Source of the DNA: Escherichia phage T4
Reading direction: 5' to 3' (one strand)
Sequence record: NC_000866.4
DNA: 64,000 nucleotides
Each line of letters begins with the position of its first letter. Positions within the stretch are counted from its first letter, which is position 1. Under the pieces are notes generated by a model that saw only the letters and a program-made list of their open reading frames with translations, was not told where the DNA came from and did not search any database. The position numbers and the translations under genes are program-made. Below are positions 1-29,505 of this stretch, piece after piece.

Positions 1-2507
<2,507 letters not shown>

Positions 2508-2535
2508 TATTAAAGCATATTAAAGAGGATTAAAA

Positions 2536-4515
2536 ATGACTTTATTATCTCCGGGCATTGAGCTCAAAGAAACTACGGTTCAAAGCACCGTAGTTAATAA
2601 CTCTACTGGTACAGCAGCTTTGGCCGGTAAATTCCAGTGGGGTCCTGCTTTTCAGATTAAACAGGTTACAAATGAAGTAGATTTAGTTAATACTTTTGGT
2701 CAACCAACCGCTGAAACTGCTGACTATTTTATGTCTGCGATGAATTTCTTGCAGTACGGAAATGACTTACGAGTAGTTCGTGCTGTTGATAGAGATACCG
2801 CTAAAAACTCATCGCCAATTGCTGGTAATATTGATTACACAATTTCTACCCCAGGTAGTAACTATGCGGTTGGAGATAAAATCACGGTCAAATATGTTTC
2901 AGATGATATTGAAACTGAAGGTAAAATTACTGAAGTAGACGCAGATGGAAAAATTAAGAAAATTAATATTCCTACTGGCAAAAATTACGCTAAAGCGAAA
3001 GAAGTCGGTGAATATCCAACACTAGGTTCTAACTGGACTGCGGAAATTTCTTCATCTTCCTCTGGTTTAGCTGCAGTAATAACTCTTGGAAAAATTATTA
3101 CTGATTCTGGTATTTTATTAGCTGAAATTGAAAATGCTGAAGCTGCTATGACAGCGGTTGACTTTCAAGCAAATCTTAAAAAATATGGAATTCCAGGAGT
3201 AGTAGCGCTTTATCCAGGCGAATTAGGCGATAAAATTGAAATTGAAATCGTATCTAAAGCTGACTATGCAAAAGGAGCTTCTGCATTACTCCCAATTTAT
3301 CCAGGTGGTGGTACTCGTGCATCTACTGCTAAAGCAGTGTTTGGATATGGACCGCAAACTGATTCACAGTACGCTATTATAGTTCGTCGTAATGATGCTA
3401 TTGTTCAAAGCGTTGTTCTTTCAACTAAGCGTGGTGAAAAAGATATTTACGATAGTAACATCTATATCGATGACTTTTTCGCAAAAGGTGGTTCAGAATA
3501 TATTTTTGCAACTGCACAAAACTGGCCAGAAGGCTTCTCTGGAATTTTAACTCTGTCTGGTGGATTATCATCAAATGCTGAAGTAACAGCAGGAGATTTG
3601 ATGGAAGCTTGGGACTTCTTTGCTGACCGTGAATCTGTTGACGTTCAACTGTTTATTGCAGGTTCTTGTGCCGGTGAATCTTTAGAAACAGCATCTACTG
3701 TCCAAAAACACGTCGTTTCAATTGGGGATGCTCGCCAAGATTGCTTAGTATTGTGCTCTCCTCCGCGTGAAACTGTAGTTGGAATTCCTGTAACCCGTGC
3801 TGTTGATAACCTAGTCAATTGGAGAACTGCGGCAGGTTCATACACTGATAATAACTTTAATATCAGTTCAACCTATGCAGCAATTGATGGTAACCATAAG
3901 TATCAGTATGACAAATATAATGATGTGAATCGTTGGGTTCCATTAGCAGCTGATATTGCTGGTTTATGCGCAAGAACTGATAACGTATCTCAGACTTGGA
4001 TGTCTCCAGCTGGTTATAATCGTGGTCAGATTCTTAACGTTATTAAACTTGCTATTGAAACTCGCCAGGCTCAGCGCGACCGTTTATACCAAGAAGCTAT
4101 CAACCCGGTAACCGGTACAGGTGGTGATGGTTACGTATTGTATGGTGATAAAACAGCTACTTCTGTTCCTTCTCCATTTGATCGTATTAACGTTCGTCGT
4201 CTGTTTAATATGTTGAAAACGAATATCGGACGTAGTTCAAAATATCGTTTGTTCGAATTAAACAACGCGTTTACTCGTTCATCATTCCGCACAGAAACTG
4301 CCCAGTACTTACAAGGGAATAAAGCTCTCGGTGGAATTTATGAATATCGTGTAGTTTGCGATACAACAAATAACACTCCGTCAGTAATTGATAGAAATGA
4401 GTTTGTTGCAACATTCTACATCCAACCGGCTAGAAGCATTAACTACATTACCTTAAACTTCGTAGCAACTGCTACTGGTGCAGATTTCGATGAGTTAACT
4501 GGTCTTGCTGGTTAA
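2536..4515 (+). CDS. 18: Tail sheath protein
   Basis: 659-aa ORF, T4 gp18 length; preceded by TATAAATA late promoter. Confidence 0.95.
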   Translation: MTLLSPGIELKETTVQSTVVNNSTGTAALAGKFQWGPAFQIKQVTNEVDLVNTFGQPTAETADYFMSAMNFLQYGNDLRVVRAVDRDTAKNSSPIAGNIDYTISTPGSNYAVGDKITVKYVSDDIETEGKITEVDADGKIKKINIPTGKNYAKAKEVGEYPTLGSNWTAEISSSSSGLAAVITLGKIITDSGILLAEIENAEAAMTAVDFQANLKKYGIPGVVALYPGELGDKIEIEIVSKADYAKGASALLPIYPGGGTRASTAKAVFGYGPQTDSQYAIIVRRNDAIVQSVVLSTKRGEKDIYDSNIYIDDFFAKGGSEYIFATAQNWPEGFSGILTLSGGLSSNAEVTAGDLMEAWDFFADRESVDVQLFIAGSCAGESLETASTVQKHVVSIGDARQDCLVLCSPPRETVVGIPVTRAVDNLVNWRTAAGSYTDNNFNISSTYAAIDGNHKYQYDKYNDVNRWVPLAADIAGLCARTDNVSQTWMSPAGYNRGQILNVIKLAIETRQAQRDRLYQEAINPVTGTGGDGYVLYGDKTATSVPSPFDRINVRRLFNMLKTNIGRSSKYRLFELNNAFTRSSFRTETAQYLQGNKALGGIYEYRVVCDTTNNTPSVIDRNEFVATFYIQPARSINYITLNFVATATGADFDELTGLAG

Positions 4516-4550
4516 TACGGTGCATTCTAAAGGCCTGTTTCGGCAGGCCA

Positions 4551-4558
4551 TATAAATA
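4551..4558 (+). promoter_or_regulatory. Late promoter TATAAATA (gene 18-19 intergenic, first copy)
   Basis: Exact TATAAATA directly after a GC hairpin at 4532-4549. Confidence 0.55.
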
Positions 4559-4609
4559 CACTATATCCTTAATTCTTTAATTCTATATGCCCTAGGTTAA
4601 ACATAGGGA

Positions 4610-4617
4610 TATAAATA
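4610..4617 (+). promoter_or_regulatory. Late promoter TATAAATA (second copy, proximal to gene 19)
   Basis: Exact TATAAATA 15 nt upstream of the gene 19 ATG, preceded by a second hairpin. Confidence 0.5.
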
Positions 4618-4631
4618 CTACAGAGGCTAAT

Positions 4632-5123
4632 ATGTTTGTAGATGATGTAACACGAGCGTTTGAATCTGGTGATTTTGCTCGACCTAACTTATTCCAAGTA
4701 GAAATTTCTTATCTTGGACAAAATTTTACGTTCCAATGTAAAGCTACTGCTCTACCAGCTGGTATTGTAGAAAAAATTCCAGTCGGATTTATGAACCGTA
4801 AAATTAACGTAGCAGGCGATCGTACATTCGATGACTGGACTGTTACAGTAATGAACGATGAAGCTCATGATGCTCGTCAGAAGTTCGTTGATTGGCAAAG
4901 CATTGCTGCGGGGCAAGGAAACGAAATTACTGGTGGAAAACCTGCAGAGTATAAAAAGAGCGCTATCGTTCGTCAATATGCTCGTGACGCTAAAACAGTA
5001 ACAAAAGAAATTGAAATTAAAGGTCTGTGGCCTACTAACGTGGGTGAACTTCAATTAGATTGGGATTCAAACAATGAAATCCAAACTTTTGAAGTAACTC
5101 TTGCTCTCGATTATTGGGAATAA
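4632..5123 (+). CDS. 19: Tail tube protein
   Basis: 163-aa ORF following gp18; T4 gp19 length and position. Confidence 0.93.
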   Translation: MFVDDVTRAFESGDFARPNLFQVEISYLGQNFTFQCKATALPAGIVEKIPVGFMNRKINVAGDRTFDDWTVTVMNDEAHDARQKFVDWQSIAAGQGNEITGGKPAEYKKSAIVRQYARDAKTVTKEIEIKGLWPTNVGELQLDWDSNNEIQTFEVTLALDYWE

Positions 5124-5155
5124 AATGAATGGGGAGAAATCCCCATCCTGCTTAA

Positions 5156-6780
<1,625 letters not shown>

Positions 6781-6781
<1 letters not shown>

Positions 6782-7023
6782 TGGAAGGTTTAATTGAAGC
6801 TATTAAATCAAACGACCTCGTAGCCGCTCGTAAATTATTTGCTGAAGCCATGGCTGCAAGAACGATTGATTTAATTAAAGAAGAAAAAATCGCTATCGCT
6901 CGCAATTTCTTAATCGAAGGTGAAGAACCTGAAGACGAGGATGAAGATGAAGATGACGAAGATAGTGATGATAAAGACGACAAAAAAGACGAAGACTCTG
7001 ACGAAGACGAGGATGATGAATAA
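6781..7023 (+). CDS. 67: Prohead core protein with poly-acidic C-terminus
   Basis: 80-aa ORF; C-terminal 30 residues almost entirely D/E; position between portal and gp68. Confidence 0.9.
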
Positions 7024-7448
7024 TGCTTCTGATCCCTGAAACTCATGAATTAGTTCTCGAGAATGTCGAAGCACTTATTCCTGAAGCACAGGGTCGCTTT
7101 GACGAATTGTCTTCTGCTTTAAATAAAGACGATATAAATACAATTGTCGAGAATATGCTTGATGATGAAACTGATTTAGCGGTTGCATTAGCTTCTATTA
7201 ATGAAAATATGCCGTTAAATGAATTCATCGTTAAACATGTTTCTGCCCGTGGTGAAATTACTCGCACTAAAGACCGCAAAACGCGTGAACGAAATGCATT
7301 TCAAACCACTGGGCTGTCTAAAGCAAAACGTAGACAAATTGCTCGTAAAGCTACCAAAACGAAGATTGCCAATCCAGCAGGTCAATCTCGTGCTCAGCGT
7401 AAGCGTAAAAAAGCTCTTAAACGCCGTAAAGCATTAGGATTAAGCTAA
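7023..7448 (+). CDS. 68: Prohead core protein
   Basis: 141-aa ORF with basic C-terminus, overlapping start/stop with neighbours; T4 gene 68 position. Confidence 0.88.
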
Positions 7449-25753: not shown

Positions 25754-26715
25754 TGTATTCTTTAGAGGAATTTAATAATCAAGCAATAAACGCAGATTTC
25801 CAACGTAATAATATGTTTAGCTGCGTTTTTGCGACAACTCCATCAACTAAAAGCTCTTCGTTGATAAGTTCAATTAGCAACTTTTCTTATAATAACTTGG
25901 GCCTAAATTCAGATTGGTTAGGATTAACTCAAGGTGATATTAATCAGGGAATTACCACGCTAATTACAGCTGGCACACAAAAACTGATAAGAAAATCAGG
26001 AGTCAGTAAATATCTTATTGGTGCCATGAGTCAACGTACAGTTCAAAGTTTATTAGGCTCATTTACAGTTGGTACATATTTAATTGACTTCTTTAACATG
26101 GCATATAACTCATCTGGATTGATGATATACTCTGTAAAAATGCCAGAGAATAGATTATCCTATGAAACTGACTGGAACTATAATTCTCCTAATATTCGTA
26201 TAACCGGAAGAGAATTAGACCCTTTGGTTATTTCATTTAGAATGGATTCAGAAGCTTGTAACTATCGTGCAATGCAAGACTGGGTTAACTCCGTTCAAGA
26301 CCCAGTAACTGGACTGCGTGCTTTGCCACAAGATGTCGAGGCAGATATTCAGGTTAATCTTCATTCTCGCAATGGATTACCTCATACTGCGGTGATGTTC
26401 ACGATGCATTCAATATCAGTGAGCGCTCCTGAGTTATCATATGATGGAGATAACCAAATAACTACATTTGATGTTACTTTTGCGTACAGAGTGATGCAGG
26501 CTGGAGCAGTTGATAGGCAACGTGCGCTTGAATGGCTTGAATCTGCTGCTATAAATGGTATTCAAAGCGTTCTCGGAAATAGTGGAGGTGTTACTGGACT
26601 ATCTAATTCGCTTTCACGACTTAGTAGATTAGGGGGAACTGCAGGAAGCATTTCAAACATTAATACTATGACAGGAATTGTCAATTCGCAGAGTAAAATA
26701 TTAGGAGCAATATAA
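25753..26715 (+). CDS. 54: Baseplate-tail tube initiator
   Basis: 320-aa ORF; T4 gp54 length; hairpin terminator downstream. Confidence 0.92.
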   Translation: MYSLEEFNNQAINADFQRNNMFSCVFATTPSTKSSSLISSISNFSYNNLGLNSDWLGLTQGDINQGITTLITAGTQKLIRKSGVSKYLIGAMSQRTVQSLLGSFTVGTYLIDFFNMAYNSSGLMIYSVKMPENRLSYETDWNYNSPNIRITGRELDPLVISFRMDSEACNYRAMQDWVNSVQDPVTGLRALPQDVEADIQVNLHSRNGLPHTAVMFTMHSISVSAPELSYDGDNQITTFDVTFAYRVMQAGAVDRQRALEWLESAAINGIQSVLGNSGGVTGLSNSLSRLSRLGGTAGSISNINTMTGIVNSQSKILGAI

Positions 26716-26720
26716 CAATG

Positions 26721-26747
26721 GGGACCGAAAGGTCCATATTTTTATTT
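26721..26747 (+). terminator. Terminator after gene 54
   Basis: GGACC-GAAA-GGUCC hairpin followed by a T-rich tract. Confidence 0.75.
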
Positions 26748-27032
26748 ACGGAATGAAATGAAAGCAGCAACTGAAGCAACTAAACTGTCTTCAATATAAA
26801 CTTCAATTTTTACAGGAGCTTCTGACTCAAATTTACCTGTTACTACACCCTGAAAAATACTTTCAGTCTGTTCTGGCTTTGAAAAATTTTCAGAAGGAAA
26901 AATTCCGAACTTTTTATCTGTTCCAAAAATTTTGATAAATTCATCGTAAACCGCTTCGTTAAAAGCATTATCAGCAGGAATAACGCCTTCAACTACAAGT
27001 TCTTGACCTAAAAAGCGTAAAGAAGATTTCAT
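26742..27032 (-). CDS. alt.-3: Hypothetical protein
   Basis: 96-aa ORF with ATG start and GAGGA RBS, downstream of an early promoter cassette; name by synteny. Confidence 0.7.
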   Translation of the reverse strand: MKSSLRFLGQELVVEGVIPADNAFNEAVYDEFIKIFGTDKKFGIFPSENFSKPEQTESIFQGVVTGKFESEAPVKIEVYIEDSLVASVAAFISFRK

Positions 27033-27063
27033 TTTGTGTTCCTCATGTTATGTTAGTAAGACT

Positions 27064-27093
27064 ACTATAACACAACACGAGGGACTTGTAAAC
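27064..27093 (-). promoter_or_regulatory. Early sigma70-like promoter upstream of alt.-3
   Basis: Minus strand GTTTACA - 17 nt - TATAGT, then leader with GAGGA RBS; part of a duplicated 52-bp cassette. Confidence 0.6.
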
Positions 27094-27268
27094 TACATTT
27101 TGAACTTTTTAGTACGCGTAATAGGCATGCGTCGATTTTATACTGTTTCATTGTTTGAAGAGCAGTATCAAAAACAGCATTAATGACACCAATTGGATTT
27201 CCACCCAAGTTTTTAAGCTTAACTAATGATAGTTTCTCATTAACACCTATCATTACGATATGCATCAT
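27065..27268 (-). CDS. alt.-2: Alt N-terminal paralogue fragment (matches Alt residues ~64-128)
   Basis: 67-aa ORF MMHIVMIGVN...KQYKIDACLLRVLK aligns to Alt MMHIVPFTLT...RQYKIDACMLRILK. Confidence 0.75.
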   Translation of the reverse strand: MMHIVMIGVNEKLSLVKLKNLGGNPIGVINAVFDTALQTMKQYKIDACLLRVLKSSKCSLQVPRVVL

Positions 27269-27450
27269 TTTATCGCCTGGTTTAACGTTTTATTTGTATC
27301 ACCGCCAGAGGTGTATGTACAAAATCTAAATCCAGGAAGTACACTTTCTTCACCGGCTTGAATAGCAAAAATTTGTGGTATTTTATGCTTAGGATTTAAT
27401 GTAACAACCGGCGCCGAAGCGCCGTCAAATAATTCTGTAATAAGTTCCAT
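27265..27450 (-). CDS. alt.-1: Alt N-terminal paralogue fragment (matches Alt residues ~1-61)
   Basis: 61-aa ORF MELITELFD...PGFRFCTYTSGGDTN aligns to Alt MMELITELFD...PGFRLCTYTSGGDTN; stop overlaps the start of the next fragment. Confidence 0.75.
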   Translation of the reverse strand: MELITELFDGASAPVVTLNPKHKIPQIFAIQAGEESVLPGFRFCTYTSGGDTNKTLNQAIK

Positions 27451-27453
27451 GAT

Positions 27454-29505
27454 TTATCCTTGAACGAACTTGTAAGGCATGTTTGCAATATCTATGCAAG
27501 ACGCAATAATTCCAAGAGATGATTCTACTTTCTGTTTAACATTTGATGAAACAAATGATGCAAAGTCAACTCTATCTTCTATATCACCTGTCATTGTAAC
27601 CAATTCACCAGTTTCCATTAAATGGTCTCCGTCATAGATTACCGATTCGGTGAGTTCTTCTGTGGTCATAACTTCAGCTTGAATAAGCTTGTTGTTAGTT
27701 TTAACTGTTCCATCATTGTAAGATGCATCGGTTATTTTATTAACTTTGACCATTAATCCACGTGGCAAAATGACTTCCATTTCATTTGAAGGCGCTAAAC
27801 TTCCACCGGGTAAAACAACATTGACCTTATCAGCCCCAGTAATAACCCATCCAATTCCAACTAAATTATCGCTAGAATTTACAAGTCCTTCATCAGTTTT
27901 ATCAATAGAAACGCTTAAACGCTTTTCGTCTGGTAAAACACCTATAGATGAATCAGTCATCCAAGTACCAAAAATATTTGGATATAATGATGTTGACACA
28001 AAGTTTCTAAAATAAAAAACTCGATTTTTTACCATTGCTTCGTATATTGAAGGTAACATTCGTTGTGAACGATACAAAGTAATACCTTTTGGTAATCGTT
28101 CACCATTTTTAAAGGCTGAATCTAAATTATCAATAGCTTTTTCTATGTCAGATGCTGTCAAAATACTTGTACGCTCATCTGGATTATATAATCCCAAAAG
28201 AGCATTATTTATGTCTACATATCCTGAACCTACGTATTCACGAATTCCGCGTTTTTGCGCTGGTGTGTATTTAGATGAATCTTTATTTTCGACTATAGGA
28301 TGTAATGACCATCCAGCGGTAAGAGCATATCCACGTAATTCTCTTCGAATAATCTTTGTTTTTATTGCATTCCAAGAATTTTGTACTAACTCATTTGCAG
28401 CATCTTGGTTTAAATGCGAATGTTTGTTAATATTTCTTTCAAACCAAGCACCCTTATATTTTTCTAAAGTATCATCGACGATAGAAGCAATAGTTTCTAA
28501 GGTTTTTATTGAAGTAATAGATTCTTTTCGTAATCTTTCTAAAGCTTTATTTTTTATTTCTGCGTTAATAATGGATTCTTTATCTTCAGGAATTATAGAA
28601 GCTTCTCTGAATGCCATCCCAGCTGTAACACTGCTAAGAGCATTCTCTAGTGCAAATCCTGAAGTAGAAATTACCGTTAATTCATTAGAATCAGAAATTA
28701 AAGGCGCGTCCGCTGGTTTATTTAATTCGGCCGCTGAAGCCTCAAATTTTTGAAACATTGGTGTTTCAAATCTAGAAGATTCCAATGACTGACTTTGCGC
28801 AATTGCTCTACGGGAAATTTTAACTTTAACGATTACAGCTTGGTCAGAACGTTTATCATTTTCTTGCGCAATAGATGCTGCAATTGCCTCATTTTTAGTT
28901 ACTTGAGCCCCAGTATCTTTATTGATATAAACATCACCGACCTTCGATTCAACTTTAGTAAAGAGCTCGGTACTAATTTCCGGAACTCCTGGAATGTCTT
29001 CTAGTGATACATTTTTGCGATGTATAAGAATATATGCATACTTTTTATCGTAATCCCAGAGTTCCTTAAGAAGGACGTATCTACCACCTGAACGACTACG
29101 GATAAGTCTATCAGCAATAACTTGAATTTGTCGAGCTTGGCCAGCAGTTTTAGACTTAAGAATACGGAGCATACAGGCATCAATTTTATACTGGCGCATT
29201 GTTTGCATTGCAACAGTAAAAACTGAATTGATATAATTAATTGGGCTTGGACCAAGACCTTTTAATTTAGCAATTGAACCTTTAGCAGTTAATGTAAAAG
29301 GAACAATATGCATCATTTTATCGCCCATCTTTAAATCACGATTAGTATCACCTCCAGATGTATAGGTACATAAACGAAAGCCTGGTTGTTCAATTGCATC
29401 ATCAACATGAACTGAAAAAATTTGCGGTATTTTCTTCTTTGGATATAAGTTTGTAATTGGAAGAGTAGTATCTTCGTCAAATAATTCTGTAATAAGTTCC
29501 ATCAT
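27454..29505 (-). CDS. alt: ADP-ribosyltransferase, packaged head protein
   Basis: 683-aa ORF (two consecutive ATG; the second at 29502 gives 682 aa); R / STS / E-x-E triad elements (YRSQR, FVSTSL, NEMEV); TATAAATA on minus strand upstream. Confidence 0.93.
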   Translation of the reverse strand: MMELITELFDEDTTLPITNLYPKKKIPQIFSVHVDDAIEQPGFRLCTYTSGGDTNRDLKMGDKMMHIVPFTLTAKGSIAKLKGLGPSPINYINSVFTVAMQTMRQYKIDACMLRILKSKTAGQARQIQVIADRLIRSRSGGRYVLLKELWDYDKKYAYILIHRKNVSLEDIPGVPEISTELFTKVESKVGDVYINKDTGAQVTKNEAIAASIAQENDKRSDQAVIVKVKISRRAIAQSQSLESSRFETPMFQKFEASAAELNKPADAPLISDSNELTVISTSGFALENALSSVTAGMAFREASIIPEDKESIINAEIKNKALERLRKESITSIKTLETIASIVDDTLEKYKGAWFERNINKHSHLNQDAANELVQNSWNAIKTKIIRRELRGYALTAGWSLHPIVENKDSSKYTPAQKRGIREYVGSGYVDINNALLGLYNPDERTSILTASDIEKAIDNLDSAFKNGERLPKGITLYRSQRMLPSIYEAMVKNRVFYFRNFVSTSLYPNIFGTWMTDSSIGVLPDEKRLSVSIDKTDEGLVNSSDNLVGIGWVITGADKVNVVLPGGSLAPSNEMEVILPRGLMVKVNKITDASYNDGTVKTNNKLIQAEVMTTEELTESVIYDGDHLMETGELVTMTGDIEDRVDFASFVSSNVKQKVESSLGIIASCIDIANMPYKFVQG

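Follow-up and report, generated by a model that had tools for sequence, protein, structure and literature searches.

Alt of Escherichia phage T4 is a packaged NAD+:arginine ADP-ribosyltransferase (ART), from which cleavage by gp21 at the ITE-6 site strips six N-terminal residues (PMC5694885). Two small T4 open reading frames (ORFs), alt.-1 and alt.-2, were listed by Nolan et al. in 2006 among the paralogous duplications of alt ("T4 ORFs alt.-1 alt.-2"; PMC1524935), and according to a note in the T4 record MT984581 they [quoted passage not shown]. The fPS-2 annotation describes the corresponding ORF of that phage, g192c, with the words "similar to N-terminal of Alt, putative pseudogene". In view of these three sources the likeness of the two ORFs to alt is a rediscovery, its essence being already known. 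That the ancestor was a full-length gene, cut by one microhomology deletion and then decaying neutrally under additional lesions, was not found stated in the searchable literature, a scope that does not include the T4 genome review; this refined history is an incremental annotation point. The two ORFs were analyzed here in a window of 64,000 nucleotides (nt) of the T4 genome (NC_000866.4). The window is the whole stretch of DNA studied, and its positions are those of the T4 reference minus 96,000; over the region of the two ORFs the match to phage T4 is 99.6% identical. Our reading, to which we give a probability of about 0.9, is that alt.-1 and alt.-2 are the pseudogene remnant of a second full-length alt-like ADP-ribosyltransferase gene, hereafter alt2.

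The locus comprises gp29, gp48 and gp54 on the plus strand, followed on the minus strand by alt.-3, alt.-2, alt.-1 and alt. The elements on which the analysis bears are distributed as follows (aa, amino acids):

27454..29505, minus strand: alt, a 683-aa ORF, the functional packaged ADP-ribosyltransferase, named Alt in T4 records (T4 annotation begins the gene at the second ATG, 29502)
27265..27450, minus strand: alt.-1, 61 aa, beginning MELITELFD; ancestral codons 1-54, then 7 frameshifted codons and TGA
27065..27268, minus strand: alt.-2, 67 aa, beginning MMHIV; residues 1-55 are ancestral codons 62-116
27288..27291, minus strand: site of a 1-nt deletion, an A-run that reads AAAA in T4
27104..27112, minus strand: deletion junction, the single remaining copy of the 9-bp repeat CTAAAAAGT

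An initial annotation, made from the sequence alone, had described two ORFs directly downstream of alt with clear identity to Alt. Their positions proved exact, and the protein alignment that it had proposed as a check is significant for both ORFs. By BLASTP against the adjacent 683-aa Alt ORF, alt.-1 matches Alt residues 2-63 (35 identities in 62, 56%, E=1e-21) and alt.-2 matches residues 64-118 (34 in 55, 62%, E=2e-21), a likeness that far exceeds chance; the remnant and T4 alt are 69% identical in DNA over 334 nt (E=9e-28). Both ORFs also fall in PHROG 802 (Alt-like ART), alt.-1 on positions 2-60 (E=4e-18) and alt.-2 on positions 64-120 (E=8e-20). The first ~116 codons of the remnant are thus homologous to Alt with 56-62% amino-acid identity, and share with it the MELITE propeptide and cleavage motif, PGFR(L/F)CTYTSGGDTN and QYKIDAC. 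The copy had been said to span Alt residues ~1-128. This holds for residues ~1-118 and fails for the last 12 residues of alt.-2 (56-67, SKCSLQVPRVVL), which are not Alt-like and represent out-of-frame read-through of the old gene 3' end and the promoter downstream; likewise residues 55-61 of alt.-1 (TLNQAIK) are frameshifted sequence. The lack of the C-terminal catalytic domain was borne out. Alt matches Pfam PF03496 (ADPrib_exo_Tox) at residues 375-615 (E=6e-36), within a domain at ~375-620 that neither alt.-1 nor alt.-2 matches, and the homology of the remnant stops before it, at residue 116. Unlike T4 Alt, the remnant is therefore without a catalytic domain, frameshifted, and reduced to about half of the N-terminal module. 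The NCBIfam scan gave no family matched by Alt, Alt2 or the fragments, and a PDB sequence search with Alt found no solved relative.

The closest relative of the fragment is not T4 alt (69% in DNA) but the alt2 gene of other T-even-type phages (94%). In phage AR1 a second full-length alt of 2058 nt (685 aa) lies between alt and alt.-3. The remnant is 94% identical in DNA to its first 358 nt (337/358), and the last 80 nt of the remnant are 99% identical to its final 20 nt plus the downstream intergenic region. Over their full length AR1 Alt2 and T4 Alt share 41% protein identity; the LYR, FVSTS and ExE motifs align and AR1 Alt2 carries PF03496 (E=7e-20), and judging by its sequence it looks like an active, diverged paralog. 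An intact 2058-nt coding sequence is annotated in AR1, A2, RB14, wV7, Sf22, G4507 and phiD1, seven of the long-form loci inspected, under various names: AR1_201, "alt.-2" ORF194 in RB14, RB32ORF194c-like, and gp210 in Sf22 ("distinct from T4 Alt"). Occupying the same alt/alt.-3 position as the T4 remnant, the alt2 gene of Tequatrovirus is its orthologue; compared with alt2, which is intact and has the ART domain, T4 lacks nt 349-2047 and has a 1-nt deletion. Tandem alt and alt2 are the ancestral state, the 41% protein identity being what divergence has left between the two paralogs. The view of the remnant as a tandem duplicated copy of the alt N-terminus is accordingly abandoned: the whole gene was duplicated, diverged, and was then cut by an internal 1.7-kb deletion. 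No experimental characterization of full-length Alt2 was found in the searchable literature.

Some observations were made in passing on the alt2 loci. In AR1 the gene lies at 3291-5348 of the locus sequence, and the same locus is present in about 400 phage records. In sb1 the full span is present (1426-3483 of the locus sequence) and is annotated as two ORFs (534 + 1248 nt), in a record that contains N's. In G2540-3 it is the upstream alt itself that is annotated as split ORFs (1041-1587 of the locus sequence). These splits are either further independent decay or assembly errors.

The 9-mer CTAAAAAGT is found exactly twice in the intact 2058-nt paralog, at nt 340 and nt 2039, and the two alignments between the remnant and AR1 alt2 overlap precisely on it. 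The T4 lesion is therefore a deletion of 1,699 bp between direct 9-bp repeats. It takes codons 117-680, with the whole catalytic domain, and the 20 nt that remain from the 3' end of the gene are no longer in frame; 1,699 not being a multiple of 3, the alt.-2 frame passes the old stop and ends at the TAG at 27065-27067.

The distribution of this deletion among relatives was examined by megablast of the locus against 50,697 phage records, of which ~500 match and 89 span the whole query. In the other matching records only window positions 27104-27700 are covered, and in most of them this region is annotated with two Alt-like genes. With a 77-nt query laid across the junction, 88 records give full coverage. 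Among 60 rows evenly spaced through the ranking, 11 belong to the deletion class and 47 end at the junction, so that roughly 1/5 of the relatives have the T4-type remnant and 4/5 the long form. Scanning IMG/VR for the junction returned 2 contigs only, one being phage G8 again. Individual sequences were inspected for 17 deletion-class phages beside T4, of ~88, and for 8 full-length alleles of ~400. The junction is identical in 17/17 of the former, including fPS-2, which indicates that the deletion occurred once.

The second T4 lesion concerns the frame. A -1 frame change had been placed exactly at MMHIV; the ORF boundary is indeed there, and the causal 1-nt deletion lies ~21 nt upstream. All 8 full-length paralogs, and 3 of the deletion-class phages, have AAAAA at this A-run, the context being AAATAAAAC in T4 and AAATAAAAAT in AR1, and this is the only other length difference from AR1. 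In the alignment the corresponding column (160) is gapped in 12 of 15 deletion-class and 0 of 8 full-length sequences. The missing A shifts the frame at codon 55 and leads to the TGA within AAATGATG (AAA-TGA-TG). The ATG that overlaps this TGA reopens the ancestral frame, the two ORFs sharing 4 nt (ATGA, with the alt.-2 ATG on the alt.-1 stop and alt.-2 in frame -1), so that the two-ORF layout is fully accounted for. Programmed frameshifting and transcriptional slippage were considered and rejected, since the layout is not conserved and the A-run is just 4 nt: the frame change is absent in 8/8 full-length and 3/17 deletion alleles, 8/17 relatives have a codon-6 stop that closes the upstream frame, and an A4 run is too short for transcriptional slippage.

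The other deletion-class phages carry further lesions. The 1-nt deletion is found in 14 of the 17, a GAA->TAA change at codon 6 in 8, both in 5, and in LH2 the start codon ATG has become GTG (1/17). None of the 17 has an intact 5' ORF: the three without the frameshift (fPS-2, 215Ecol030PP and AV120) all have, unlike T4, the TAA at codon 6, and the ORF annotated in the fPS-2 type is a 92-aa internal restart.

Selection on the remnant was examined on the 348 retained nt, aligned for 15 deletion-class and 8 full-length alleles, with variants classed in the ancestral frame:

Private to the deletion class: 12 non-synonymous (11 + 1 nonsense), 1 synonymous
Private to full-length alleles: 1-2 non-synonymous (one being an ambiguous base), 19 synonymous
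Shared by both classes: 1 non-synonymous, 19 synonymous

The set private to the deletion class differs from either other set (Fisher's exact test, p=4.6e-7), and its 12:1 ratio differs from the combined 2:38 of variants seen in full-length alleles (p=4e-9). Set against 272:76, the ratio of neutral sites, the same 12:1 shows no significant difference (p=0.32). C:G->T:A transitions in Gly/Pro codons account for 7 of the 13 private changes, which fits mutation bias. This pattern implies that, from the deletion onwards, the protein was no longer under purifying selection.

The pseudogene reading thus follows from intact 685-aa orthologues at the same position, from the two disabling lesions of T4 and the additional ones of its relatives, and from private substitutions that look neutral; the initial annotation had named a pseudogene as one of two possibilities, and this one is sustained. 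The history begins with duplication of the whole of alt and divergence of alt2 downstream of it. In the T4 lineage a single 1,699-bp deletion between the CTAAAAAGT repeats then arose, presumably via slipped mispairing or microhomology-mediated recombination, and a separate loss of 1 nt from the A-run shifted the frame at codon 55, giving two overlapping small ORFs. The DNA may have been retained for its edges, the 5' one overlapping the end of alt and the ribosome-binding site (RBS) region and the 3' one holding the alt.-3 promoter, and not for peptides. The stretch would be transcribed by read-through, and alt.-1 may be weakly translated from its inherited RBS into products that would be non-functional half-domains.

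T4 is on this account the minority state, having lost a second, diverged and, as far as its motifs tell, probably active packaged ADP-ribosyltransferase that ~4/5 of its close relatives kept. The loss came about by a single microhomology deletion, which has since spread among phages and is still decaying. For annotation, these two "hypothetical proteins" and PHROGs 23015 and 15247 can be treated as pseudogene pieces. T4 is not representative for the Alt repertoire, and it is the full-length Alt2 encoded by other T-even phages that deserves the greater interest; the bearing on biology at large is little.

Several points weigh against the pseudogene reading. The alt.-2 ORF is open in 18/18 sequences. 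The private changes are unevenly placed, with 11 on the alt.-1 side and just 2 on the alt.-2 side (binomial test applied post hoc, p=0.018), an asymmetry that GC content fails to explain and that may be chance. "Private" variants could also occur in unsampled full-length alleles, given 8 of ~400 inspected, with 17 of ~88 in the deletion class. Lastly, alt.-1 has a good Shine-Dalgarno sequence in addition to the MELITE prohead-protease motif:

27457..27461, minus strand: Shine-Dalgarno AAGGA, 6 nt before the alt.-1 ATG, in the last alt codons and stop

The alt.-1 start region reads GTTCAAGGATAAATCATGGAA, and the alt/alt2 junction is identical in AR1 upstream of full-length alt2, from which this Shine-Dalgarno is inherited. 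The own signals of alt.-2 are limited to a weak upstream AGG and the ATGA overlap. With the alt.-1 RBS and ATGA coupling, translation appears plausible.

Published data on expression were consulted. In the time-resolved T4 proteome, in which alt.-2 is at 123065-123268 of the T4 reference, the transcripts of alt.-1 and alt.-2 are "middle" (Class_Tx) and the proteins undetected (Class_P = NA), and Alt.-3 and many other T4 proteins of 43-67 aa were detected (PMC9697503 Table S2). The proteomics check proposed for the fragments is therefore positive for transcripts and negative for both proteins, a weak negative that also tempers its use in favour of the pseudogene reading, as proteins of 61-67 aa can elude shotgun proteomics. 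A literature search for T4 ribosome profiling found nothing usable.

That the remnant is something other than inert, with fragments or a fusion modulating Alt loading, or with 5' knock-outs selected because the stump poisons Alt packaging, we regard as improbable. If true, it would pin the determinant of Alt incorporation into the capsid to the first ~116 residues. If they act as functional micro-proteins or as a decoy, expression would be expected of Alt.-1, of Alt.-2 or of a 128-aa fusion; by means of the Alt N-terminus these would gain entry to the prohead core, or would regulate Alt or compete with it. The fusion would require tRNA-Lys to slip by -1 on A_AAA_UGA where the two ORFs meet. 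The predicted Alt.-1 contains the peptide IPQIFAIQAGEESVLPGFR, the predicted Alt.-2 the peptide NLGGNPIGVINAVFDTALQTMK, and QAIKMMHIVMIGVNEK is the junction peptide unique to the putative fusion. The inherited RBS is strong, the ATGA overlap is present, the locus is transcribed, and alt.-2 is intact throughout with few private changes; the MELITE start of T4 alt.-1 is also the same as the ITE-6 site of Alt that gp21 cuts (PMC5694885). Against this, the Glu codon of that very motif is the stop in 8/17 relatives and the start codon is altered in one; the frameshift is absent in 3/17, so that the two-ORF layout is not conserved; the private changes show a neutral pattern; neither protein was detected where many T4 proteins of 43-67 aa were; and what might pass for a slip site is the GAT AAA ATG ATG already read in frame by the ancestral gene, with no evolved signal.

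The extent of the N-terminal module bears on the same point. It is conserved to ~residue 238 in Alt, Alt2, a Melville protein and RB49 Alt (32% identity). A homologue search with Alt 1-238 gave 5 matches, and the AlphaFold (AF2) model built on this shallow 5-sequence alignment predicts one compact alpha/beta fold over residues ~11-216 (pLDDT 75, pTM 0.74). As the deletion cuts after the strand at 109-115, the remnant would amount to about half a domain, which together with the codon-6 stops of relatives argues against a decoy or targeting role. The decoy or targeting module offered by the initial annotation as the other possibility is not upheld, and functional micro-proteins in general seem to us quite unlikely.

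Selected silencing is a further, and very doubtful, explanation. An in-frame 116-residue stump would be harmful, for instance by competing for core incorporation, and its knock-outs would be positively selected. The intact 5' ORF is indeed present in 0/17 deletion alleles, at least two independent knock-out lesions exist, five phages have both, and private changes are concentrated in the alt.-1 half, where 10 non-synonymous changes and 1 stop are counted against 1 synonymous. With lesions at 14/17 and 8/17, however, ~1.6 haplotypes with neither would be expected in 17, and zero is not significant; the excess of non-synonymous changes is no different from neutral, and the 7/13 share of C:G->T:A changes at Gly/Pro codons fits mutation bias. 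Hardly credible, finally, is a partial duplication in which only the first ~350 nt of alt were copied in the T4 lineage and then received a stop and a new start, as in the MT984581 note and the listing of Nolan et al. (PMC1524935), since the remnant is far closer to the 5' end of the full-length paralog than to T4 alt, it terminates in the 3' end of the full-length gene, the join lying at a 9-bp repeat of which that gene has two copies, and the full-length form occupies this position in ~80% of relatives, the derivation of full-length paralogs from a T4-like fragment being implausible given the structure of the deletion junction.

The 3' edge of the pseudogene remnant adjoins the following features:

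27064..27092, minus strand: promoter-like site TTTACA-17-TATAGT with TG extension, in the alt.-2 tail, upstream of alt.-3
26742..27032, minus strand: alt.-3, 96 aa, DUF5498 (PF17602, E=1e-64), a separate gene outside the remnant

The promoter-like site is the best match in the region (10/12), and its -10 hexamer includes the alt.-2 TAG stop. Phage Lutter has an annotated promoter at this very place, and the segment is 99% identical in AR1, downstream of full-length alt2. This alt.-3 promoter element probably accounts for the preserved 3' end of the remnant. The RNA and the protein of alt.-3 were both detected, and both are classed as early (PMC9697503 Table S2); an early alt.-3 next to "middle" alt.-1 and alt.-2 RNAs fits a promoter-like site upstream of alt.-3. 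C-terminal extensions of alt.-3 let T4 escape the CmdTAC defence (PMC11618068).

Two other loci represent further rearrangement products of the tandem alt array, neither being equivalent to the N-terminal stump of T4. ORF183c of RB49 (274 aa, directly downstream of alt, 6490-7314 of the locus sequence), annotated as an ADP-ribosyltransferase, resembles only the C-terminal part of Alt and is thus the opposite kind of partial paralog. ECML-134 (JX128259) has a single intact chimeric alt (3880-5940 of the locus sequence), which is alt-type for its first ~450 nt (95-98% to the upstream paralog) and alt2-type from there on (91-100%). This chimera suggests an unequal crossover between the tandem paralogs and an interchangeable N-terminal module.

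Within alt.-1, codon 17 (window 27400-27401) is ACA (Thr) in the T4 reference, whereas two other T4 records read AAC (Asn), as do all of the 22 further remnant or alt2 sequences sampled; from its look, this swap of adjacent bases is either an old sequencing error carried along in the reference or a difference between strains. An Rfam scan of 26600-27600 gave no RNA element in the remnant, the sole hit being a sub-threshold IRES_APC inside alt.-3 (21 bits, gathering score 50), a chance match. On the plus strand, ORFs of 33-49 aa and a terminator-like hairpin at 27114-27132 were taken as chance, the context giving them no support. Between gp54 and alt.-3 lies a GGACC-GAAA-GGTCC hairpin (26722-26735) with a terminator score on both strands; the same hairpin is annotated as bidirectional terminators in fPS-2, and parts converging late (plus-strand) and early/middle (minus-strand) transcripts.
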